From a virus (Duplodnaviria; Heunggongvirae; Uroviricota; Caudoviricetes), in IMG/VR virus record IMGVR_UViG_651053023_000006: DNA of 19,487 nt; one strand, written 5' to 3'. Under the pieces are notes generated by a model. It had not been told where the DNA came from, did no database searches, and saw nothing but the letters and a program-made list of their open reading frames with translations. The stretch's first letter is position 1. Every line of letters begins with the position of its first letter. Shown here in pieces: positions 3,495-19,487 of the stretch. The translations under genes were made by a program, and so were the position numbers.

Positions 3495-3773
3495 TTAGGG
3501 AAACTGGCGTCTTGCGTGGATCACGTTTACTACTTCAACGCTTGATGTTGTTACGCGGTATAGAATTATATAGTTAGGGTGGGCTACAATCTCACGCAAG
3601 CCAGGTACTCTGTCGCTTGGTGGGTATAAATACGGATGTTCGGATAACGGCAGCACACAACCCCTTAATCGCTGCCATAAGCGTTCAGCCGCATCTATGT
3701 CGAAACGAGCAATATAGCTAGTTATATCATCTAGGTCGGTATCTGCGCTTTCAAGCCATAACACGGGTAACAT
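3495..3773 (-). CDS. parE2: ParE-family type II toxin (ParE2-like)
   Basis: Track ORF trimmed to the internal ATG at 3771-3773, giving 92 aa. Typical ParE pattern (DLDDI...YRV...EVVNVIHARR). Start overlaps the stop of the upstream antitoxin (3775-3777). Confidence 0.75.
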   Translation of the reverse strand: MLPVLWLESADTDLDDITSYIARFDIDAAERLWQRLRGCVLPLSEHPYLYPPSDRVPGLREIVAHPNYIILYRVTTSSVEVVNVIHARRQFP

Positions 3774-3774
3774 T

Positions 3775-3966
3775 TTACTGCTTGCTCCGTTCCTTGCGCA
3801 TTTTAGCAAAGCGTTCTGCCATTCTGCGCTCAACTTCGTCATGGGGAATTGCTGGGCGCGGATCTGCAAGGCTCGTTGCTACTTTCGCACGCAGCCATTC
3901 GTTGTAACTGTTTTCTTGTTCAATGGTTTCAAATTCAGAAACCATTGGTGAAAGGGCTCTATTCAT
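3775..3966 (-). CDS. paaA2: Antitoxin of ParE toxin (PaaA2-like, 63 aa)
   Basis: ATG at 3964-3966 with AGGAGG-type RBS on the coding strand (GGAGGAAACATG). 63 aa (MNRALSPMVSEFETIEQENSYNEWLRAK...) immediately upstream of and coupled to the ParE gene. Size and sequence match my recollection of PaaA2 from the E. coli O157 paaR2-paaA2-parE2 module. Confidence 0.65.
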   Translation of the reverse strand: MNRALSPMVSEFETIEQENSYNEWLRAKVATSLADPRPAIPHDEVERRMAERFAKMRKERSKQ

Positions 3967-3986: not shown

Positions 3987-4358
3987 TCAGGCGCGGCGGC
4001 ATTTTTGCGCCGCAATCCATCTCGCTATGAGATCTTCCATTGATTCTTTTTTCTGCTTTAACTCGCTGATTATCTGGCGTTGCTCATCCTCAGGGAAGGC
4101 TGAAAAAATCTGCAATAATTCCAGTTGATTAGACGTTAACCCTGCATGTGGTGGAGAAACTTCCGGTTGTTCTGCGTATTCCGCATCCAGATACCCTTCC
4201 GGCATCCCGTATGTTTGCTCTATTCTTCTGGCAGCCTTTTCTCCAAACGAGGCCCTCCCACTCATTAGTTGAGATAGGTAGCTCTTCTCTTTGGGTGGCA
4301 GAGTTTTATCTTTAAACCACTCCTTGAGACGTAAACGGCGAATTTCTTTTTTTTGCAT
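3987..4358 (-). CDS. paaR2: HTH transcriptional regulator in the prophage repressor (CI) position, PaaR2-like
   Basis: Track ORF starts at GTG 4421; I prefer ATG at 4356-4358 (123 aa). It lies divergent to the cro-like gene and is first in an operon with the antitoxin and toxin. There is no SD before the ATG, which would fit a leaderless mRNA. Confidence 0.6.
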   Translation of the reverse strand: MQKKEIRRLRLKEWFKDKTLPPKEKSYLSQLMSGRASFGEKAARRIEQTYGMPEGYLDAEYAEQPEVSPPHAGLTSNQLELLQIFSAFPEDEQRQIISELKQKKESMEDLIARWIAAQKCRRA

Positions 4359-8287: not shown

Positions 8288-8595
8288 TTATAACCAATCA
8301 AAAAAACATCCGCAAAGCGATATTGAGCTAGTGCGGAAGCTTCATCAGTGTGGAGTTCCCCGCCGTGATATCGCTGTAAAACGCGAAATGTCCTTGGGCA
8401 TGATTAATCAGTACGTTTATTTCGACAGGAGAGCGCATGAAGTTTGACATCTAGACAACTGGGGGAGCGCTGAAAACGTTCTTAATTGATGTTGGATTCG
8501 CTTTACATACTGAACTGTTTGGCTGAAAGACACGGTAGTATCACCAATCAAGGTGCTTTTGATAAACGCTTGTGTGTTTGTTTTTTAATCCATTG

Positions 8596-8624
8596 TTGAC
8601 AACTAGGTTAGTTTTCCATATCAT
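8596..8624 (+). promoter_or_regulatory. Candidate sigma70 promoter for the ParA-like gene
   Basis: TTGACA (8596-8601), 17-nt spacer, TATCAT (8619-8624), about 30 nt upstream of ATG 8655. Confidence 0.5.
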
Positions 8625-8654
8625 CAATAAAAGTGTAAAACTAATGGTGGCGAT

Positions 8655-9701
8655 ATGACTAGTGAATCAAATGTTAATGCTCTGATAGAGCGTCAATTCG
8701 AAGTTGCTGACGGTAATGTAAGAAGTCTTAATTTGCCGAAATATGATAAATATACAGTATGTAATTTACGGGGAGGCATTGGTAAGACATCTTTAACTTT
8801 TAATCTGTCATATTTGGCGGATAACGCATTAATCGTGGATACGTGCCCGCAAGGAAATTTATCATATTTTTTTGACAATAATTATGCATCTTCGTCTAGC
8901 ACAACTGCAAATGACCTCTTAATGCCTTATTTTGTTCCAGGGCTTGGATTTGCAACGCGTGCTGCAAAGCTAGTATCATCAACTAATGCTTGGTTTGCGG
9001 GCAAGAATAACTATTTTATTCAATCTGATAGTCAACTTTATCTTCTACCTACGCAAATGGCGAATGCTCTGGCTCAAGCCAGAACAATTTCTGGGGCTAC
9101 TCAGCAGGTTGTTATTGATACAATTCTTTTTTCTCTGAAGAAAGAAATAGCCAGAGAAATGGTTGAAACTGGTACTACAAAAGCGTTAATTGATACATCA
9201 CCTTTTTTCTCTGGAGCGACGCATTTATCTTGGCATGCAACAGATGCTTTAATAGTTCCAGTGAGGACAGATCAGCAATCGATTAATTCATTAAGATTAC
9301 TTATTGATACTCTGACTAAACCAACATCAGAATTTAGAAAGATAATGCCGTCTGATGGCCATACACCAAAAATTCAGATGGTGGTTATTACCCATTGCGG
9401 ATGGTCAACAGTGGCAGGAGCAAGGAATAAACCAAATCAACAGACAAAAATGTACATCGAAGCTGTAAGAGAGGTAATTCGACAAAATATTAGTAATTTT
9501 ACAACAGATGATCCTAATAATCACATTGTGATTCTTGATGATTTTCTGGGTAGTGGCAGAATGTCAAGTGCTAAGTCTAAACCATTAGAGTTGTTAAATC
9601 CAGGAGATGCAATGACTGTGAATAGAGTTAGGACATCCGTGAATTTATCTGTTAACAAAATAAAAAATGAATTAAAGTTCATTCACAACTCCATATGGTA
9701 A
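8655..9701 (+). CDS. ParA/MinD-superfamily P-loop ATPase with atypical deviant Walker A (Arg replaces the signature Lys)
   Basis: 348 aa. Motifs: YTVCNLRGGIGKTSLTFNLSYL (deviant Walker A, R for K), LIVDTCPQGNLS (compare ParA LLIDLDPQGN), ALIDTSPFFSG ... DALIVPVRTDQQSINSL (Walker B region). About 30-aa N-terminal and about 60-aa C-terminal extensions. Region is visibly AT-rich. Confidence 0.8.
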   Translation: MTSESNVNALIERQFEVADGNVRSLNLPKYDKYTVCNLRGGIGKTSLTFNLSYLADNALIVDTCPQGNLSYFFDNNYASSSSTTANDLLMPYFVPGLGFATRAAKLVSSTNAWFAGKNNYFIQSDSQLYLLPTQMANALAQARTISGATQQVVIDTILFSLKKEIAREMVETGTTKALIDTSPFFSGATHLSWHATDALIVPVRTDQQSINSLRLLIDTLTKPTSEFRKIMPSDGHTPKIQMVVITHCGWSTVAGARNKPNQQTKMYIEAVREVIRQNISNFTTDDPNNHIVILDDFLGSGRMSSAKSKPLELLNPGDAMTVNRVRTSVNLSVNKIKNELKFIHNSIW

Positions 9702-9858
9702 ATGACATTTTATTTGAATAATCTGGATTGATAATTATTGTTACATTAATTGTTATTAATTCTAAATAATCCTATCGTTCTTCAGGATGAGATAATTTAT
9801 ATTTATTTGTGTTGTGATTTTTTGAATTTATTTAGGTTTATGAACTGTTTTAGATGAA

Positions 9859-9978
9859 ATGAATCATGAATACGAAATTGTTGCGGTACTGATAACGAGG
9901 AAAGACCTCTGCGAGGTACGAATCCGAACCGGCCAGACGGAGGTCGCTGTCTTCACAGCTTACGAACCTGAGGAGTAA
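9859..9978 (+). pseudogene. hok/gef-family type I toxin remnant, 5'-truncated
   Basis: 39-aa frame MNHEYEIVAVLITRKDLCEVRIRTGQTEVAVFTAYEPEE. The C-terminal 28 residues match the conserved Hok/Gef/RelF tail (LTRKxLCEx[RH]xRxGxxEVAxFxAYE). The N-terminal transmembrane helix is missing and no hydrophobic stretch is encoded upstream in any frame. GC-rich hairpins and a terminator follow, as in hok mRNA 3' regions. Confidence 0.6.
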
Positions 9979-10046
9979 GAGACCAGGCGAGGGAGAAATC
10001 CCTCGCCACCTCTGATGTGTCAGGCATCCTCAACGCACCCGCACTT

Positions 10047-10069
10047 AACCCGCTTCGGCGGGTTTTTTA
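10047..10069 (+). terminator. Rho-independent terminator (hok-remnant 3' end)
   Basis: ACCCGC-TTCG-GCGGGT hairpin (10048-10063) followed by T6. A strong GGCGAGGGA-GAAA-TCCCTCGCC hairpin lies upstream at 9986-10007. Confidence 0.7.
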
Positions 10070-10116
10070 TTGGTTGACAAAATTATGAATATGCACCAAT
10101 ATCTTGGTTGACAAAA
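10070..10116 (+). promoter_or_regulatory. Candidate promoter/operator with two direct TTGGTTGACAAAA repeats
   Basis: TTGGTTGACAAAA at 10070-10082 and 10104-10116. Each contains TTGACA. Located between the terminator and the start of the downstream two-gene operon. Confidence 0.4.
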
Positions 10117-10151
10117 GTCGTTTTTTGCACGGATTAGGCGGAGAAGTGTCT

Positions 10152-10745
10152 ATGCAGAACCATCCATTCCCTTGGGAGTTCTTTCCTGAGTTAACAGAGG
10201 AGCGTTTAACCATTATAGCTGAGGAGTTGCTCAGGATACAGGATATTACTCATGAGTTATTGTCATCGCCCTATGATGATAATTACACTCGTGGTGGTTG
10301 TACATTTGGGCGTCAGCGGCAGGCGTTGCTACAAATGTGCGTACGAAAGACATATGACTGGTTAAGACTACTTAATCCTGGCATGGATCTTACGTTTTCA
10401 ATTGGGAATGTCCCTATTCGTTTCTTTACTGATGACGCAGATAACCCCAAGAAACGCGGTTTTTTCAAAAGAAATGATGCTGATCGACTCTTTGAGTCAG
10501 AGGAGACTACTCCAACTATGCATCGCTTTGTGGTTGAAAAGCCTGAATTTGAAGGCGAGGGTGGTAGAGTCATTTTTAATGGCTATAACGTGTTTGGTGA
10601 GATCGTGTCAACTTGGACATATGGTGCGGACCGTGTTGTTATGCTGAACTCTGTCGATGATGTACCTCCAGCACCGGTACCTATCGAACTAGAACCTATC
10701 AGTGCGTCTAAGACTGAGAAGGAAAAGAAACAAAATAGCAAATAG
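10152..10745 (+). CDS. Hypothetical protein (197 aa), first gene of a two-gene operon
   Basis: Track ORF starts at TTG 10104; I prefer ATG 10152 with GGAG about 9 nt upstream. AT-rich codon usage. No family motif recognised. Stop TAG at 10743-10745 is 10 nt before the next start. Confidence 0.65.
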   Translation: MQNHPFPWEFFPELTEERLTIIAEELLRIQDITHELLSSPYDDNYTRGGCTFGRQRQALLQMCVRKTYDWLRLLNPGMDLTFSIGNVPIRFFTDDADNPKKRGFFKRNDADRLFESEETTPTMHRFVVEKPEFEGEGGRVIFNGYNVFGEIVSTWTYGADRVVMLNSVDDVPPAPVPIELEPISASKTEKEKKQNSK

Positions 10746-10755
10746 TGGGTGAAAT

Positions 10756-11877
10756 GTGTTTAACGGTACTAATTTAAGACTTGCTCGTCTGTATCACGAG
10801 CTATCTCTGGAGCAGGTTGCTGAGAAGGTTGAAAAAACACGCCAGTATGTACAGCGACTGGAGTCTGGTTCAGCTACTCCATCCCCAGAGCTTATAAATA
10901 AATTAGCCGAGGTTTTGCGCGTGAAGCCCGCCTTTTTCGAAGGGCAGGAACATTCTCCTGTTAATGAAGAGATTGTACATTTTCGTAAACGCGCCTCGAC
11001 AAGGATGTCAACGAAGCTATCAACACTCGCTAAGGCTGAGTTTTATCGTCGTTTTATTGATGTATTTGAAGATAACCTTAATTTGTCACCTGTTCGATTT
11101 CCTGAATTTCGTGTCCATACACAAGAAGATATCGAGCGAGCGGCAGAAAAATGTCGTATTGAGTGGGGCTTAGGCTTTGGCCCAATTGAAAATATGACTC
11201 GCCTTGCCGAGAAACTTGGGGCGTTTGTTACTTCATTTGACTCCGTTTCGGATGAAGTAGATGCACTGTCTGTTCCTCTACGAAGGCCTTTTATTGTTCG
11301 AAATACAGCTAAAAATTCACCTTGTAGGCAACGCTTTGATATTGCTCATGAGGTTGCCCATTTGATTCTTCATGAAGGAATTTCTACTGGGGATAGATTA
11401 ACTGAATCCCAGGCAAACCGTTTTGCCTCTGCTCTGTTGCTTCCCAGAACGTCGATGGCGAAATATTTTCCAAGACCTGTGGGGGGGAGGATAAATTGGC
11501 AGGGACTAAGCCAATTTAAGTTGACATGGAAAGTAAGTAAGGCTGCCATTGTTTACAGGGCTCATCAATTAGGACTTTTGACTGATGAGCAGTACAGAAC
11601 TGCATTTATGGGGTTGAAACGGAAAGGGGAAGCTATTGATGAAAAAGAAGATTATCTAATCCCTCATGAGCGTCCTGAGTTATTCCGTCGGGCTTTATCG
11701 TTTTTATTTGAAGAGTTAGGATACGACCCACAGCGTATAGCTGATGAAATGGATATAGAAGTGGACATTTTTTATGAGTTAGTAGGAGATGATCTTCCTG
11801 CGGTTCATGAACTGCCAGGAAGTGGTGATGTTGTTTCACTACAATCTTACCGAACTCTTAGAGGCAAAATTCACTAG
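10756..11877 (+). CDS. XRE-family HTH fused to ImmA/IrrE-type zinc metallopeptidase (COG2856-like)
   Basis: GTG start at 10756. N-terminal HTH (LRLARLYHELSLEQVAEKVEKTRQYVQRLESG...ELINKLAEVL). Central HEXXH motif (FDIAHEVAHLILHE) in the arrangement typical of ImmA/IrrE peptidases. 373 aa. Confidence 0.75.
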   Translation: MFNGTNLRLARLYHELSLEQVAEKVEKTRQYVQRLESGSATPSPELINKLAEVLRVKPAFFEGQEHSPVNEEIVHFRKRASTRMSTKLSTLAKAEFYRRFIDVFEDNLNLSPVRFPEFRVHTQEDIERAAEKCRIEWGLGFGPIENMTRLAEKLGAFVTSFDSVSDEVDALSVPLRRPFIVRNTAKNSPCRQRFDIAHEVAHLILHEGISTGDRLTESQANRFASALLLPRTSMAKYFPRPVGGRINWQGLSQFKLTWKVSKAAIVYRAHQLGLLTDEQYRTAFMGLKRKGEAIDEKEDYLIPHERPELFRRALSFLFEELGYDPQRIADEMDIEVDIFYELVGDDLPAVHELPGSGDVVSLQSYRTLRGKIH

Positions 11878-11881
11878 GCAT

Positions 11882-11904
11882 AACCCGCTTCGGCGGGTTT
11901 TTTG
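11882..11904 (+). terminator. Rho-independent terminator, identical hairpin to 10047-10069
   Basis: ACCCGC-TTCG-GCGGGT followed by T6, starting 5 nt after the stop at 11875-11877. Confidence 0.7.
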
Positions 11905-11978
11905 TTTTACGTATTCTGGTTTACAATCTACAGGCTAGCCTGAACAACTGGCACCTGCTGCGCCAGCAGAGAAAACCG

Positions 11979-14570: not shown

Positions 14571-14646
14571 GGCCCTTTAGCTCAGTGGTGAGAGCGAGCG
14601 ACTCATAATCGCTTGGTCGTTGGTTCAAACCCAACAGGGGCCACCA
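14571..14646 (+). tRNA. tRNA with CAU anticodon, Ile2 (lysidine) type by similarity to ileX; tRNA-Met not formally excluded
   Basis: 76 nt including CCA. Acceptor stem GGCCCTT/AGGGGCC. Anticodon stem AGCGA/TCGCT with loop CTCATAA (U33, CAT, A37). T arm GTTGG-TTCAAAC-CCAAC. Closely resembles E. coli tRNA-Ile2 as I remember it. Confidence 0.9.
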
Positions 14647-14745: not shown

Positions 14746-15591
14746 TCAGATGGCTGATAGTTGCCCCGGATAATGCTTCGCAATGATGTCATTTAGCCGA
14801 TCAACCAGTTCCGGTTTTCTGAACGTGATGTGCGCGGAGCCCTTCTTAAAGTATCTGATGCTGAACATCTCATCTTCATAGCTCTCTTTACCCTGAACAG
14901 ACTGAATGTGATCATCCAGACGAATAGTGATGTTTTCCCGGTTGTCGGGGATCGGTTTGCCGCTGAACAGATGCAGCATTCTTTCCAGGTCGGCAAGTCG
15001 ATCGGCCTGTTGCCCGGTGATAAGATGAAACCCCCACCGGTCCCACCTCACCAGGTTGTTGACGATAATTTTACTGCTAAATTTGCAGGGGCAATTGGTT
15101 TTGTAATTCCAGCTCAGCCCTCTGAAGACGTTGATCACCCCTCGCTCAAACACCTCATCCTTATTCTGGTGCAGTTGTTCAAATGTGCTCAGAATGTTCG
15201 CTTCACTGATTTCCGGAAAATTATCGTACTCCAGTGACCGGTACCATGTATCACGGGCCTGCGCATCCATTAATGACAGCATCCCGGAACGTTGCATCAG
15301 ATCACGCCAGAGTTCGCGATCAAGATTGTGTGTGATGGCTTTCATTGCCGTTTCAGGTTTCTCCATGAGCCAGCAGCCACAGCGAAAATCCTGTTTCATC
15401 GCCCAGCCCAGTGCGGTTTTACCGCCAATACTTTCTGTCATTGCTGAGATTTCAGCCAGTTGCCGGATAAGTGTGTCGATTTGCAGCAGTGAACTCTTTC
15501 GTACAGCCAGAATGTGGCGGATACTGGTTGAGCAGATAACGTCCGTATGCCCGTTGACAACTTCCGGACGGGAGGCTGTGATATCAGACAT
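14746..15591 (-). CDS. Conserved hypothetical protein, distal gene of a CP4-type island
   Basis: 281-aa ORF, ATG at 15589-15591 with AGGA upstream. Context: downstream of a cbtA/cbeA-type module. Confidence 0.6.
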   Translation of the reverse strand: MSDITASRPEVVNGHTDVICSTSIRHILAVRKSSLLQIDTLIRQLAEISAMTESIGGKTALGWAMKQDFRCGCWLMEKPETAMKAITHNLDRELWRDLMQRSGMLSLMDAQARDTWYRSLEYDNFPEISEANILSTFEQLHQNKDEVFERGVINVFRGLSWNYKTNCPCKFSSKIIVNNLVRWDRWGFHLITGQQADRLADLERMLHLFSGKPIPDNRENITIRLDDHIQSVQGKESYEDEMFSIRYFKKGSAHITFRKPELVDRLNDIIAKHYPGQLSAI

Positions 15592-15675
15592 AATCGATAT
15601 TCCTTTTTGCAGATAAATGAAAACGCCAGCCCTGTTCAGGCTGGCGTCAGTGGAATGAAGTCTGGTGAGTAAGAC

Positions 15676-15873
15676 TCACCGGTTCTGTTGCAGAAGCTGC
15701 AGTTGGCGCAGGGTATGGATATCTTCCCTGGCCTGTTCAATGCAGGGCAGCAGTGCTGCCGAATCCATTTTATCCTCATCGTTGTCGAAGATAATTCCGG
15801 ATTCGCAGTCGATATTGTTCTGTAGCCACGCAATCAGAATATCCAGCGCCGTTTCTGTGGTTAATGATTCCAT
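15676..15873 (-). CDS. Small conserved hypothetical protein (about 65 aa)
   Basis: Track ORF 15676-16110 overlaps the upstream gene out of frame. Only the part from ATG 15871-15873 (MESLTTETALDILIAWLQNN...) is non-overlapping. Confidence 0.45.
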   Translation of the reverse strand: MESLTTETALDILIAWLQNNIDCESGIIFDNDEDKMDSAALLPCIEQAREDIHTLRQLQLLQQNR

Positions 15874-15892
15874 ACTGTGTCTTTTGTCCAGG

Positions 15893-16381
15893 TTACCAGT
15901 TGAAGGTGGGTAAACCCGGCAGGCATTCAGCGCTGGCATCCAGGTGAATGAGACTGACGCCATAACGCCGGATGAGTGTGACAACCAGACGACGGAATGT
16001 TTTTGACAGGCCCAGACGTTTAAGTTGCAGAACCGGGTATGACCACGCATCGGTACGTAACAGATATCCGCTACCGGTAAAATGAATCCATTCTGATTCG
16101 CCGAAGTCACTGGTCTGGTGTGACAGCGAGTACAACCAGGCGTTGTCTGTTTCCGTGATATGTGCGGTGCTGCAGCGTATACCGCTCAGGGCAGCGGAGG
16201 GTGGCATGCTGTCAGTTGCGGTCCGGTCAGATTCATCAACAACACGAAGGGAGTAGCCATTGTCGCAGGCCACGTTAATCAGTTCAGCAAGATTAACACC
16301 ATCGACGTCAACGACAATGCGCCCCATGTTCAGTGCCTGCACGTTAATGCTGTCGGCTTCCAGCGTCAGGGCCAGTTTCAT
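15893..16381 (-). CDS. YeeW-like hypothetical protein
   Basis: 162 aa. Its ATG (16379-16381) overlaps the stop of the upstream toxin gene as ATGA. Confidence 0.55.
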   Translation of the reverse strand: MKLALTLEADSINVQALNMGRIVVDVDGVNLAELINVACDNGYSLRVVDESDRTATDSMPPSAALSGIRCSTAHITETDNAWLYSLSHQTSDFGESEWIHFTGSGYLLRTDAWSYPVLQLKRLGLSKTFRRLVVTLIRRYGVSLIHLDASAECLPGLPTFNW

Positions 16382-16755
16382 TGTTTCGCCCCCGGATGTT
16401 TACCCAAGATAATGTTATTTACCGTTCTGTAATTGTCGCGGGCCATCAGGCCGGTTGCCCGGCGGGTCCGGAGGATATCAATACTGTTTATTAACTGAGA
16501 GCGGGTACAGGTGCTGAACCCCGGCTGGTCGGTTCGTACCAGTGCGTATTTTTCCACGAGAAAGTTCACCGCATCGCACAGTGAAATGCCTGCCTCAATA
16601 TGCTGCTCAATCACACGTTCATCGGCAAACGGTGTGTCATTCAGCGTGAGGCCGTAATGCTGGTCCAGCAGTCGGGTGAGCAGTATCTGCCAGATGGTGA
16701 CGGGAGACGGGCAGCGCGATGCCTCCCGTACATGCGTGTCGGGTAATGTTTTCAT
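16378..16755 (-). CDS. cbtA: CbtA-family type IV toxin (YeeV/YkfI/YpjF family)
   Basis: Track ORF trimmed to ATG 16753-16755 (125 aa, MKTLPDTHVREASRCPSPVTIWQILLTRLLDQHYGLTLNDTPFADERVIEQHIEAGISL...). Lies downstream of a CbeA-like antitoxin. Paralog assignment is uncertain. Confidence 0.8.
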   Translation of the reverse strand: MKTLPDTHVREASRCPSPVTIWQILLTRLLDQHYGLTLNDTPFADERVIEQHIEAGISLCDAVNFLVEKYALVRTDQPGFSTCTRSQLINSIDILRTRRATGLMARDNYRTVNNIILGKHPGAKQ

Positions 16756-16844
16756 ACTGAAGATTTTCCTGATATGCAGAGATGAAAAATGGAAAAGTGG
16801 CGTGGTGAAAACACCAGGCCGGAGCAGAAGGTTATTCTGGAGAG

Positions 16845-17213
16845 TTACTTTTTCGTTTCGGGCGTCGGATAAACAGCCATATAAACGTAGCCACAACTGC
16901 CGAGGGTGTCGGCTTCGCAGGTCAGCCCTTTTGCATACAGTGTCACGGTATGCTGATGGCGGGGGCTGAGTTCACCGCTGGTGAGCATGAGCTCCAGTTG
17001 TTTCATCAGCAGCGGAAAGGCCTGGTCCAGGTGGTACGAATCCGCGTCGCTGAACCGGCCTCTGATACCGGCGCGGTCTGCAAGGTAATGCAACCGGTTA
17101 CCCTCCTGCACCAGACGTGCACCGAAACAGGGCGTCACGGAGCAGGGTAGCCCCCACCAGGGGCGGTCGTTGTTATCGTCGGGATGCGTTGTCCCGGGGA
17201 GTGTGTCTGACAC
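16845..17213 (-). CDS. cbeA: CbeA-family antitoxin (YeeU/YfjZ/YafW family)
   Basis: 122 aa, GTG start at 17211-17213 with GAGGA 8 nt upstream. MSDTLPGTT...PWWGLPC...RLHYLADRAGIRG... matches the family as I remember it. Confidence 0.8.
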   Translation of the reverse strand: MSDTLPGTTHPDDNNDRPWWGLPCSVTPCFGARLVQEGNRLHYLADRAGIRGRFSDADSYHLDQAFPLLMKQLELMLTSGELSPRHQHTVTLYAKGLTCEADTLGSCGYVYMAVYPTPETKK

Positions 17214-17292
17214 GATAAAATCCTCACAGAAAATTGGTTAAGAATGGTCCGGTGGTGGCGATAATTCTGCTCTTCTGAATGCCTTTCCAGAC

Positions 17293-17514
17293 TCAGTTCA
17301 GGGTGACGCTCATCAGCCGGACATACGGACCAAAACTGTCCTTACGGCGTTCGGCAAACACGGCAAGAACGCCGGGAATATCCTGCACTTCACGACCGGT
17401 ATACGCCTCAGCACCGCCGTGCCAGCGGTATTTACCGGTACAGAACGGAAAAAGACGGGATGCAGGATGCTGACGGTGAATACGCATGGCTTCACCACAG
17501 GTGATGATTTTCAT
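17293..17514 (-). CDS. yeeT: YeeT-family small protein (DUF987)
   Basis: 73 aa (MKIITCGEAMRIHRQHPASRLFPFCTGKYRWHGGAEAYTGREVQDIPGVLAVFAERRKDSFGPYVRLMSVTLN), nearly identical in pattern to YeeT as I remember it. Confidence 0.8.
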   Translation of the reverse strand: MKIITCGEAMRIHRQHPASRLFPFCTGKYRWHGGAEAYTGREVQDIPGVLAVFAERRKDSFGPYVRLMSVTLN

Positions 17515-17600
17515 GAGAATAGTCCTCCTGAATGTGAAAGTAAGAAACAGCTGAGAAAGAGAAACTGAAGTGATATGAAGGTGATTGTGACGGTGACGGG

Positions 17601-18077
17601 TTAAAGCAGACCGTGTTCCGCAAAGGAGAAAACCTGGCTGCCACCGATTATCAGATGGTCCGGCACCCGGATGTCAACCAGGGCCAGTGCCTGTACCAGA
17701 CGTTCCGTAATAAGGCGGTCAGCCTTACTGGGTGTGACTTCACCGGACGGATGATTGTGTGCCAGTACCACGGCAGCGGCATTGTGGTGCAGGGCGCGTT
17801 TAATCACCTCCCGGGGATGGACTTCCGTGCGGTTGATGGTGCCTGTGAAGAGGGTTTCACCGGCAATCAGCTGATTCTGGTTGTTCAGATACAGCACCCG
17901 GAACTCTTCCCGCTCCAGTCCTGCCATGTTCAGAATCAGCCATTCCCGTGCCGCATGCGTGGAGGTGAAGGCCACACCGGGTTCATGAAGATGGCGGTCC
18001 AGGGTTTTCAGGGCCCGCTGAATGAGGCTGCGCTCACCGGGCGTCATCTCTCCTGGCAGAAAGGAAAGCTGTTGCAT
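17601..18077 (-). CDS. RadC-like JAB/MPN domain protein (YeeS/YfjY/YkfG family)
   Basis: Track ORF starts at GTG 18182; I prefer ATG 18075-18077 (158 aa). JAMM-like HNHPSGEVTPSKAD motif. Confidence 0.75.
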   Translation of the reverse strand: MQQLSFLPGEMTPGERSLIQRALKTLDRHLHEPGVAFTSTHAAREWLILNMAGLEREEFRVLYLNNQNQLIAGETLFTGTINRTEVHPREVIKRALHHNAAAVVLAHNHPSGEVTPSKADRLITERLVQALALVDIRVPDHLIIGGSQVFSFAEHGLL

Positions 18078-18091
18078 TGTTCCGGCCCCTT

Positions 18092-18577
18092 TCAGTCGAT
18101 GATGCGCATAATGGCGCTGCATTCCGGATGCTGCAGGGCGTAGTCCCGCAGACGGTAATAATGAACCGTCATGGCATAACACTCCGTACGACAGGCGTGA
18201 TGGCTGTATGTCATCAGACAGGCTGCAATGCCGGCGGCTTCCGGGCTCATTTCAGCGCGGTTACCGTTCATGGCATTGAACAGTACCCATGTTTCGTCAT
18301 CATCGTCATCCGGTTCGGGTGCCATAAATGCCCCTCCGTTATTCAGTGTGTACAGATTCCAGATACCACCGCAGTAGTCTTCACACAGACGGTCCATCCA
18401 GCCGAAGATACGGGGCTCCAGGGTCACCCACTGTGGGATGAGGCCAAAATGCTGCGGCCAGAAGCTGATACGTTGTTCATCAGGGACGAGGCTGGCAACC
18501 AGCTGAGGCTGGTTATTCCCTGATGCAGTGGTTACGGAAACAGAAGGTGTGGTTGAATTATGCGAAACGGTTGTCAT
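18092..18577 (-). CDS. Antirestriction protein (KlcA/ArdB-like, YfjX family)
   Basis: 161 aa, ATG 18575-18577 with AGGA RBS. Acidic patch (EPDDDDDE). Position between DUF932 and RadC-like genes is typical of CP4-type islands. Confidence 0.7.
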   Translation of the reverse strand: MTTVSHNSTTPSVSVTTASGNNQPQLVASLVPDEQRISFWPQHFGLIPQWVTLEPRIFGWMDRLCEDYCGGIWNLYTLNNGGAFMAPEPDDDDDETWVLFNAMNGNRAEMSPEAAGIAACLMTYSHHACRTECYAMTVHYYRLRDYALQHPECSAIMRIID

Positions 18578-18668
18578 GAGATTATTCCTTATAAAAAGTA
18601 AATGAATGGAAGAATGCCTGGGGGAAGGGACAGACGTGAGTCAGGGCTGCACTTTCAGGGAAACAGCA

Positions 18669-19487
18669 TCAGCGCATGCTCTCCAGCAGCGTTTCTGCCA
18701 TCACCCACAATGCGCGATTGAGCTTAATGTCCGTGTCGATGCTGTGAATGGCACGGGTGTGGATACGTTTTCCTTTAGCGCTGCGACCGGAAATCCCGCC
18801 TTTCAGCATATTTTCCTGGATGGTCTGATAAGCACTCCACAGGTCCTTACCGTAATCCTCCCGGCGTCGTGGCGTCAGAATGTCGGCGGTGGTGACGGGC
18901 TGATGTTCGTCACCATAACGGTAATTCAGTGCCGCCTGTGCCAGCGCCTGGCGTGCCGGTGGCGGTAAGACCAGAGACTGCATGGCATCACGCTTTTCCT
19001 CAATCCGGTCAAACACGCCCACCACCTCGTAAGCCCCTTCAATGACTCTGTCCACCACATTTCCCCGGTGTGGAACACTCACTTCCCCCAGAGACTGACC
19101 ACAGACGCAGCCGTTCTGGCAGACGAACCTGAAGTAACCCGGCAGCATCTGGTAGCTGGAGGTACCGTCATGGGAGTTCAGCAGGATGATTTCAGGGACA
19201 TGTTGTCCGTTTATCTCCCCGTCACGGCGCAGACGCAGCATGTGTCTGGTGTATCCCCGGCGGCCCGGGTCGCGCACGCGGGTCTGGCAGGCGAAGAATG
19301 GCTGAAAACCTTCCCGCTGCAGGTTTTCCAGTACGGTGATGGTGGGAATGTACGCATAGCGTTCACTACGGGAGGTATGCCGGTCTTCCCCAAAAATACT
19401 GGGTACATAGTGCATCAGTTCTTCGTGTGTCAGCGGACGGTCACGGCGTATCTGGTTTACATGACCAAAACGACTTGCTAATCGCAT
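18669..19487 (-). CDS. DUF932 family protein (YfjQ/YafZ-like)
   Basis: 272-aa ORF. Its ATG is the last three bases of the window (19485-19487), so the CDS appears complete but its upstream region is not visible. Confidence 0.7.
   Translation of the reverse strand: MRLASRFGHVNQIRRDRPLTHEELMHYVPSIFGEDRHTSRSERYAYIPTITVLENLQREGFQPFFACQTRVRDPGRRGYTRHMLRLRRDGEINGQHVPEIILLNSHDGTSSYQMLPGYFRFVCQNGCVCGQSLGEVSVPHRGNVVDRVIEGAYEVVGVFDRIEEKRDAMQSLVLPPPARQALAQAALNYRYGDEHQPVTTADILTPRRREDYGKDLWSAYQTIQENMLKGGISGRSAKGKRIHTRAIHSIDTDIKLNRALWVMAETLLESMR

Follow-up and report, generated by a model that had tools for sequence, protein, structure and literature searches.

A probable RosmerTA-type toxin-antitoxin cassette behind the hokD terminator of a defective lambdoid prophage

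We analyzed a 19,487-nucleotide stretch of tailed-phage DNA (Caudoviricetes; IMG/VR record IMGVR_UViG_651053023_000006), the whole of which is called the window. It was 100% identical to a locus of Escherichia coli UMNF18, where, according to the RefSeq annotation, a lambdoid prophage is integrated beside potC. The element in question is a two-gene unit at 10070-11905, whose genes are termed rmrT (gene 1) and rmrA (gene 2). An initial annotation had described this unit as an operon that codes for a 197-aa protein and for a fusion of an XRE-type helix-turn-helix (HTH) to an ImmA/IrrE (M78) metallopeptidase with an HEVAH motif. Open reading frames (ORFs) and Pfam domains bore out both genes at these positions (Table 1). 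As in the RosmerTA family, an adjacent, co-oriented toxin gene matching the family RmrT model was found next to an antitoxin gene in which an XRE HTH is fused to an M78 Zn-peptidase. The two genes are thus very likely a RosmerTA-type (Vmi480/Vmi470-type) toxin-antitoxin (TA) cassette, a prophage moron inserted precisely after the hokD terminator, and we are very confident of the assignment of the module itself to TA systems of the RosmerTA type.

Table 1. Features of the rmrTA cassette and its borders in the window
Feature	Position	Strand	Description
hokD 3' remnant (Hok/Gef pseudogene)	9877-9978	+	RefSeq annotation of the identical UMNF18 locus
Left hokD intrinsic terminator copy	10046-10068	+	Hairpin 10047-10064 and T-run; left cassette boundary; from terminator scan and SE11 empty-site alignment
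Putative promoter/operator unit 1	10070-10103	+	GGTTGACAAA; -35 TTGACA 10074-10079; TGCA 10092-10095; putative -10 CAATAT 10097-10102; 17-nt spacer
Putative operator unit 2	10104-10137	+	Second GGTTGACAAA 10106-10115; TGCA 10126-10129; 34 bp after unit 1
rmrT (gene 1)	10152-10745	+	ATG start; 197 aa; GGAG at 10140-10143, 8 nt upstream
rmrA (gene 2)	10756-11877	+	GTG start; 373 aa
Right terminator copy	11881-11903	+	GC-rich hairpin 11882-11899 and T-run; ends the rmrTA operon; right cassette boundary

The two genes and their putative operator

The predicted RmrA protein carried the two domains that Pfam had been expected to return, namely, HTH_3 at aa 7-61 (nt 10774-10938; E value, 1.5e-12) and Peptidase_M78, the ImmA/IrrE Zn-peptidase family, at aa 151-269 (nt 11206-11562; 8.4e-17). 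The HEVAH motif (H198-E199-x-x-H202) was located at aa 198-202 (nt 11347-11361). Residues H198, E199, H202, H206, and E217 were invariant in 39 homologues, with E217 residing in an E-x2-A-N-x-F-A motif, and the M78 peptidase is predicted from these residues to be catalytically intact. The RmrA N terminus (MFN...) agreed with the homologues, and about 70 C-terminal residues (aa ~300-373) were poorly conserved. PADLOC model RmrA PDLC03943 matched at 4.3e-201 over 1-368 of its 370 positions, 13 further RmrA models also matched, and so did capP (2.8e-17) and capH (5e-10). The protein belongs to phrog_2439, is RefSeq WP_000481765.1 in the UMNF18 locus, and shared 31% identity over 311 aa with the E. 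coli OLC-716 RmrA, which has been verified by experiment. NCBIfam NF052239, the equivalog model of the spr1629 family, scored 174.3 bits (E = 4e-51), far below its curated cut-off of 335, indicating that RmrA is related to but not an equivalog of spr1629. Searched against PDB sequences, RmrA matched generic HTH proteins only.

The product of rmrT matched PADLOC model RmrT PDLC03929 over its full length (aligned 1-197 of 198; 5.5e-93) and phrog_5786, which PHROGs lists with function unknown, at 2.9e-92. The earlier statement that gene 1 matches no family therefore held for Pfam and NCBIfam, both of which gave zero matches to the protein, but not beyond them, as PADLOC and DefenseFinder contain an RmrT model and a PHROG exists. 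Pfam searches with 68 members of the RmrT family likewise returned no consistent family. The window protein is WP_001179381.1 of the UMNF18 locus, from which other E. coli alleles differ by 1-3 aa. All three family motifs, DDNYTRG, RFFTDD..P.K.GFF, and RFVVE, were present in it, and it carries the wild-type T46 within the conserved DDNYTRG. Residues D42, Y45, R54, R90, F92, D94, D95, P99, D111, R125, F126, and E129 were invariant in the family alignment. The family comprised 80 clusters at 90% identity and, by hidden Markov model (HMM), 429 representatives at 50% identity; among the full-length ones listed, nearly all were stand-alone proteins of ~195-230 aa.

An AlphaFold model of RmrT (mean predicted local distance difference test [pLDDT], 82; predicted template modeling score, 0.74) consisted of two long helices, a sheet of three strands, a conserved loop, three more strands, and a polar tail of 30 C-terminal residues that was disordered (pLDDT <60). 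A hydropathy scan detected no transmembrane segment or hydrophobic helix, the maximal 19-residue Kyte-Doolittle value being 0.82 and the isoelectric point 5.0, and RmrT is thus predicted to be a soluble, acidic, and cytoplasmic effector. Neither a ClpX degron nor a clamp-binding motif could be made out convincingly when the RmrT sequence was inspected by eye. A fold search pointed weakly to restriction endonucleases, whereas the RmrT alignment profile had 0 matches at E ≤10 among PDB sequences and a BFVD viral fold search returned nothing significant. As the mark of a PD-(D/E)xK enzyme, we took an alpha-beta-beta-beta-alpha-beta core, catalytic residues of the form D ... (D/E)xK, and a structural similarity that is significant. 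That RmrT is nuclease-like, perhaps with a fold of the restriction-endonuclease (PD-(D/E)xK-like) type that acts on nucleic acid, is a tentative suggestion that we regard as doubtful. The order of secondary-structure elements, alpha-alpha-beta-beta-beta-loop-beta-beta-beta, was the same in the models of RmrT and of the verified OLC-716 RmrT, in line with the remark by Ernits et al. that Rosmer toxins have a fold in common. Because comparisons between the two toxin families were not significant (BLASTP, E >1; two hhalign runs, probability 0.2-1.3%), only this shared order, and not homology, is claimed.

The two genes are separated by exactly 10 nt (10746-10755), in keeping with the tight spacing described initially, and the repeat-containing promoter region noted there corresponded to an exact 13-nt direct repeat, TTGGTTGACAAAA, at 10070-10082 and 10104-10116. 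This repeat is part of a conserved tandem arrangement of two GTTGACAAA-N9-TGCA units that overlaps the predicted rmrT promoter. The motif gGTTGACAAA-N9-ttTGCA, occurring twice upstream of rmrT, was present in 35 of 41 loci with unconserved flanks, and the two units were spaced by 33-34 bp in 32 of 33 loci. Furthermore, when 793 kb of locus sequence was searched on both strands, TTGAC[AG]-N26-29-T[TG]GAC occurred 36 times, and 35 of these occurrences were found at -55 to -80 from rmrT. Unit 1 contains a perfect -35 and a weak -10 hexamer, and unit 2 is positioned between the transcription start, predicted near 10109, and the GGAG ribosome-binding site. A -35-like hexamer plays no part in a promoter when it lies downstream of the start; that it is conserved therefore speaks for a site bound by a protein, which for the tandem sites would most simply be RmrA through its HTH. 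In three betaproteobacterial loci (L019, L020, and L024), unit 2 contained a near-perfect palindrome, TTGACAA-TT-TTGTCA, instead of GTTGACAAA-N9-TGCA, a hint at TGACAA as the half-site and at binding of RmrA as a dimer.

Conservation of the gene neighborhood, one of the checks proposed at the outset, was evident among 42 genome loci from Gamma- and Betaproteobacteria. In 40 of them, an RmrA homologue (42-77% identity) was encoded directly downstream of rmrT on the same strand, and the two exceptions were toxin fragments. The gaps between the genes were mostly 5-16 nt, and the identities of RmrT and RmrA correlated across loci (Spearman, 0.86). These data show that rmrT and rmrA are inherited as a unit.

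Cassette boundaries and known relatives

The unit at 10070-11905 is an exact 1,835-bp insertion right after the hokD terminator. Both of its borders are formed by a 23-nt exact direct repeat, TAACCCGCTTCGGCGGGTTTTTT, which is the hokD terminator itself (both copies are listed in Table 1) and recurs at a spacing of 1,835 bp; its 18-nt core occurred twice in the window versus 0 times expected by chance. The corresponding empty site was found in E. coli SE11, where hokD, a 90-aa ORF, DUF968, RusA, and Q follow each other with a single terminator, and in the junction alignment the left and right flanks of the window joined exactly at that terminator. A synthetic empty-site query was matched over at least 80% of its length in 2,754 of 5,426 complete E. 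coli genomes. The cassette, by comparison, was rare, being present at ≥99% identity in 23 of the same 5,426 genomes, all chromosomal. Among 50,697 phage records, megablast with the cassette had zero matches; tblastn gave one weak match, to a Salmonella record. GC content was 43-45% across the unit versus 53-55% immediately downstream. The description of the unit as AT-rich and self-contained, with a terminator of its own, was hence substantiated, and so was its placement as prophage cargo beside hokD, since it lies directly downstream of the hokD remnant. That remnant, a truncated Hok/Gef pseudogene, codes for the C-terminal part only (...RKDLCEVRIRTGQTEVAVFTAYEPEE), whereas other cassette carriers have an intact hokD upstream of the cassette. 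Within its defective lambdoid prophage, the rmrTA pair is a moron of the early-right region, one more example of a defense or TA moron that has entered a lambdoid prophage at the junction between hokD and DUF968.

Outside E. coli, the pair was found on plasmids of Salmonella, Klebsiella, Pantoea, Providencia, and Acinetobacter, and the Vibrio island MGIVmi1 carries it as Vmi480/Vmi470 (PMC4671572). The carriers of rmrTA are mobile or defense-rich. In Aeromonas veronii (L003-L005, 1-8609), the pair lies in an island, preceded by a DNA_pol_A-domain protein and unknown genes and followed by an HNH-like protein, an S-adenosylmethionine (SAM) methyltransferase, and a DEAD/UvrD helicase fusion of 1,732 aa; it has the look of a defense island that also houses other systems. 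In Proteus mirabilis (L006-L008, 4001-5753), the pair (57% and 72% identity) is flanked, in a P2-like prophage, by the replication gene gpA and the portal gene. We take this gpA-portal position to be one of the P2 anti-phage hotspots of Rousset et al. 2022.

The closest known relative is the TA module E101_02645/E101_02644 of an E. coli E101 prophage (Rousset et al., 10.1101/2020.05.25.114553; Nat Microbiol 2021), which is essentially the same locus as rmrTA. The antitoxin accession WP_000481765.1 (E101_02644) is common to both, and the E101 toxin (E101_02645, WP_001179380.1), a prophage-borne 197-aa hypothetical protein without a predicted domain, falls into the same ≥90% cluster as the window RmrT. 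This module makes clpP essential in E101, and its transfer to K-12 reproduced the dependence unless the toxin carried T46S; suppressors of clpP loss in E101 had either lost the prophage or acquired T46S (10.1101/2020.05.25.114553). The label of an operon of unknown function was consequently superseded, as the E. coli module had already been characterized genetically by Rousset et al. Unlike the E101 prophage, that of the window is apparently truncated after Q and a tRNA gene and may not be excisable. The E101 toxin and antitoxin are 33% and 42% identical to Vmi480 and Vmi470, respectively (10.1101/2020.05.25.114553). For this Vibrio mimicus pair on MGIVmi1, it was reported that the toxin is lethal alone and is neutralized if the two genes are expressed together from one PBAD construct and that the Vmi470 antitoxin cannot be deleted alone (Luo et al. 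2015, PMC4671572). Vmi480/Vmi470 resembles the window module in its toxin family (198 aa; 33%), its antitoxin family (362 aa; 42%), and the toxin-first order with a 5-bp gap; it differs in being carried by a mobilizable genomic island rather than a lambdoid prophage and is distant in sequence.

In the definition of Millman et al. 2022, RosmerTA pairs an antitoxin that contains a Zn-peptidase with a toxin whose function is unknown. Their verified OLC-716 system has the same layout as the window module, with the toxin gene followed by that of a ~370-aa XRE-HTH and M78 Zn-peptidase antitoxin, and its rmrA could not be deleted. Nevertheless, the OLC-716 RmrT is 239 aa long versus 197 aa, without significant sequence or profile similarity, and the region upstream lacks the GTTGACAAA-N9-TGCA operator. 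Of the two, only the OLC-716 system has been shown to defend against phage. No mention of UMNF18, TW10598, or TW11681 was found in the accessible portion of the Millman supplements. RipAB (Spr1630/Spr1629), a Rosmer-family TA of Streptococcus pneumoniae (PMC12795458), also has an antitoxin composed of an XRE HTH and an ImmA-like peptidase. Its toxin lethality is unmasked by loss of ClpX, compared with loss of ClpP for the E. coli module, and overexpression of its antitoxin makes ClpX dispensable (PMC12795458). In contrast to the window module, RipAB is chromosomal and competence-linked, and RipA targets DnaN. Transposon sequencing of three RosmerTA-carrying Pectobacteriaceae strains showed that rmrA and clpX are both essential.

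More distant are ImmR/ImmA of ICEBs1, DdrO/IrrE of Deinococcus, and CapH/CapP of CBASS, which share with RmrA an M78 HEXXH peptidase and a promoter-controlling XRE HTH. In these, repressor and protease are separate and the output is derepression of other genes, whereas RmrA combines HTH and M78 in one 373-aa polypeptide partnered with a toxin that would be neutralized post-translationally, and the cassette holds no small HTH gene. Equally remote is PD-lambda-2 (Vassallo et al. 2022), which has three genes, with a HigB-like one first and a P4 beta-like component third, and whose HTH-peptidase protein is itself the toxic component; the PADLOC scan of the pair gave no match to PD-lambda-2 models. 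The order of closeness is thus the E101 module, then Vmi480/Vmi470, verified RosmerTA, and RipAB, and thereafter these more distant systems. Given the PADLOC calls, the accession shared with E101, and the literature, rmrTA is a genuine but not a new system, already catalogued and partly characterized. The RefSeq labels "hypothetical protein" and "helix-turn-helix domain-containing protein" can accordingly be replaced by RmrT and RmrA of RosmerTA. What the present analysis adds is the toxin-to-antitoxin synteny, the tandem operator, the invariant peptidase residues, and a predicted soluble toxin with a weak hint of a restriction-endonuclease-like fold. The conserved operator and the invariant toxin residues, including the motif that holds the T46S suppressor position, offer concrete experimental handles.

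Proposed mechanism and competing explanations

By analogy with the E101 module and Vmi480/Vmi470, for which this has been shown, rmrT would encode a protein that is toxic unless restrained, and rmrA its antitoxin. The initial annotation had proposed a sensor-regulator coupled to an effector; the RmrT and RmrA HMM calls together with the literature on these two modules support a regulator or antitoxin coupled to a toxic effector. RmrA would be bifunctional, its HTH repressing the operon and its peptidase-containing body neutralizing RmrT. The HTH would bind the two GTTGACAAA-N9-TGCA sites and thereby autorepress the operon, as these sites overlap the -35 and the early transcribed region. Neutralization would occur at the protein level, because homologue pairs neutralize even when co-expressed from foreign promoters. 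Since the E101 module makes ClpP essential, the host Clp protease is part of toxin restraint in E. coli. The likeliest route is that RmrA binds or cleaves RmrT and hands it over to ClpXP/ClpAP, in the manner of a type-VI-like proteolytic antitoxin; such cleavage or presentation to Clp is probable because Clp loss activates, rather than silences, the toxin. In classical type II TA systems, loss of Clp has the opposite effect. Phage infection or another insult would then inactivate RmrA or overload Clp, and the freed RmrT would arrest or kill the cell before the phage cycle is completed, i.e., by abortive infection. The peptidase may serve as the sensor in this scheme. A more specific version, in which RmrT is an unrecognized, highly diverged PD-(D/E)xK-like effector sharing its fold with the sequence-unrelated verified RmrT, the RmrA peptidase and ClpXP/ClpAP continuously destroy the toxin, the HTH represses at the tandem operator, and a phage disables RmrA or saturates Clp, appears distinctly unlikely as a whole.

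Defense-system HMMs called the pair RosmerTA, which places it in the class of candidate abortive-infection or defense modules, as had been surmised, and it is probable that this rmrTA subtype protects against some phages. Anti-phage defense by RosmerTA was demonstrated with the OLC-716 and Gordonia phage Kita systems, the toxins of which are unrelated to the window RmrT. Several observations weigh against the RosmerTA reading as a whole. Tested Rosmer homologues often gave narrow or no phage protection, and our literature search found no published anti-phage test of the window's toxin subtype. BLASTP and hhalign detected no sequence similarity between the verified OLC-716 RmrT and that of the window. 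The toxin accessions of E101 and the window differ, and therefore the proteins differ in at least one residue, their near-identity being deduced from the allele spectrum. Finally, a generic sigma-70 scan did not call the rmrT promoter, owing to the weak -10, and the promoter assignment rests on conservation.

An alternative explanation takes the cassette to be purely an addiction, stabilization, or selfish TA element without a part in phage defense, which would persist because loss of the cassette or of the prophage is lethal to the cell and for which ClpP dependence would be a side effect. This would fit the phenotypes reported for the E101 module and Vmi480/Vmi470, which are toxicity, neutralization, and conditional clpP essentiality only, as well as the little or no phage protection by several Rosmer homologues and the tie of the pneumococcal family member to competence induction instead of defense. 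However, prophage excision was readily recovered among E101 suppressors, indicating that the module does not prevent prophage loss. Family members also occur at the Proteus P2 gpA-portal site, whose hotspot status we presume, and in the Aeromonas island, and the RosmerTA configuration does confer defense, both in E. coli and in the case of the Gordonia phage Kita system, so a role without phage defense is unlikely in our judgment. Far less credible is a switch for the prophage or a neighboring gene similar to ImmR/ImmA or CapH/CapP, in which a DNA-damage-activated peptidase cleaves the HTH protein and gene 1 is regulated cargo instead of a toxin. RmrA does match capP, capH, and the M78/ImmA family, and the conserved operator suggests transcriptional control; yet rmrT is the sole gene preceded by the operator, the RmrA family has HTH and peptidase in one protein and no separate gene for a repressor substrate, and the regulator region of the prophage is a separate one ~6 kb upstream. 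A role of the cassette as the immunity or anti-repressor switch of its prophage was rejected, as the cassette is an accessory insertion for which otherwise syntenic prophages have an empty site and homologues of gene 1 kill when expressed by themselves (Vmi480, PMC4671572).

With a RosmerTA-type module as the preferred reading, the mode of action of the toxin is a narrower issue. Reported mechanisms of Rosmer toxins number only two, membrane depolarization, as by Kita RmrT-D5, and block of the DnaN sliding clamp, as by RipA; dependence on ClpX or ClpP is common to RipAB and the E. coli module. An RmrT that acts in one of these two ways, and not as a nuclease-like protein, can be entertained but is not favored. 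The absence of any hydrophobic segment from the acidic RmrT makes a Kita-type membrane toxin unlikely, no canonical clamp-binding motif was seen by eye in a class of toxins that is diverse in sequence, and the fold search leaned, if weakly, toward restriction endonucleases.

Neighboring genes of the prophage

The left part of the prophage comprises integrase and excisionase genes, a regulator/YdaT region, replication genes, and the DUF1627, DUF977, and ParA-family genes. To the right, the hokD remnant and the two cassette genes are followed by a 90-aa ORF, DUF968, RusA, and Q, then by a tRNA gene and a CP4-like island segment. The exo-like and ydaT genes of the prophage are also annotated as pseudogenes in RefSeq. 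In the early-left region, RefSeq annotates a RelE/ParE-family toxin gene (3495-3773, minus strand) with small upstream ORFs (3775-3966 and 3987-4358, minus strand), and together they would form a second module of TA type in this prophage.

Upstream of the hokD remnant, an ORF on the plus strand (8655-9701) encodes a 348-aa ParA-family ATPase (Pfam AAA_31, 8.4e-10; phrog_164 ParA-like, 2.8e-30), which had only weak PADLOC matches, to PRTase and ShosT models. No parB accompanies this solitary ParA, which occupies a cargo slot of the prophage within a strongly AT-rich block (8400-9870; 34-38% GC) that replaces the 5' part of hokD. The block was present together with the cassette in 14 of the 23 genomes that carry the latter, while other carriers have an intact hokD instead, and 94 E. 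coli plasmids had segments ~85% identical to it.

Just downstream of the Q antiterminator gene, a tRNA gene (14571-14646, plus strand) was called tRNA-Met (CAT) by ARAGORN and tRNA-Ile by RefSeq; presumably it is a lysidine-modified tRNA-Ile2. Right after it, in place of the phage late region, lies the CP4-like island segment (14746-19487, genes on the minus strand), and the prophage is for this reason considered a remnant. The segment encodes DUF4942, DUF957, and DUF5983 proteins, the CbtA toxin and YeeU antitoxin, a DUF987 protein, a JAB-domain protein, an antirestriction protein, and a DUF932 protein, and in UMNF18 the gene of the Cah autotransporter follows just past the end of the window.

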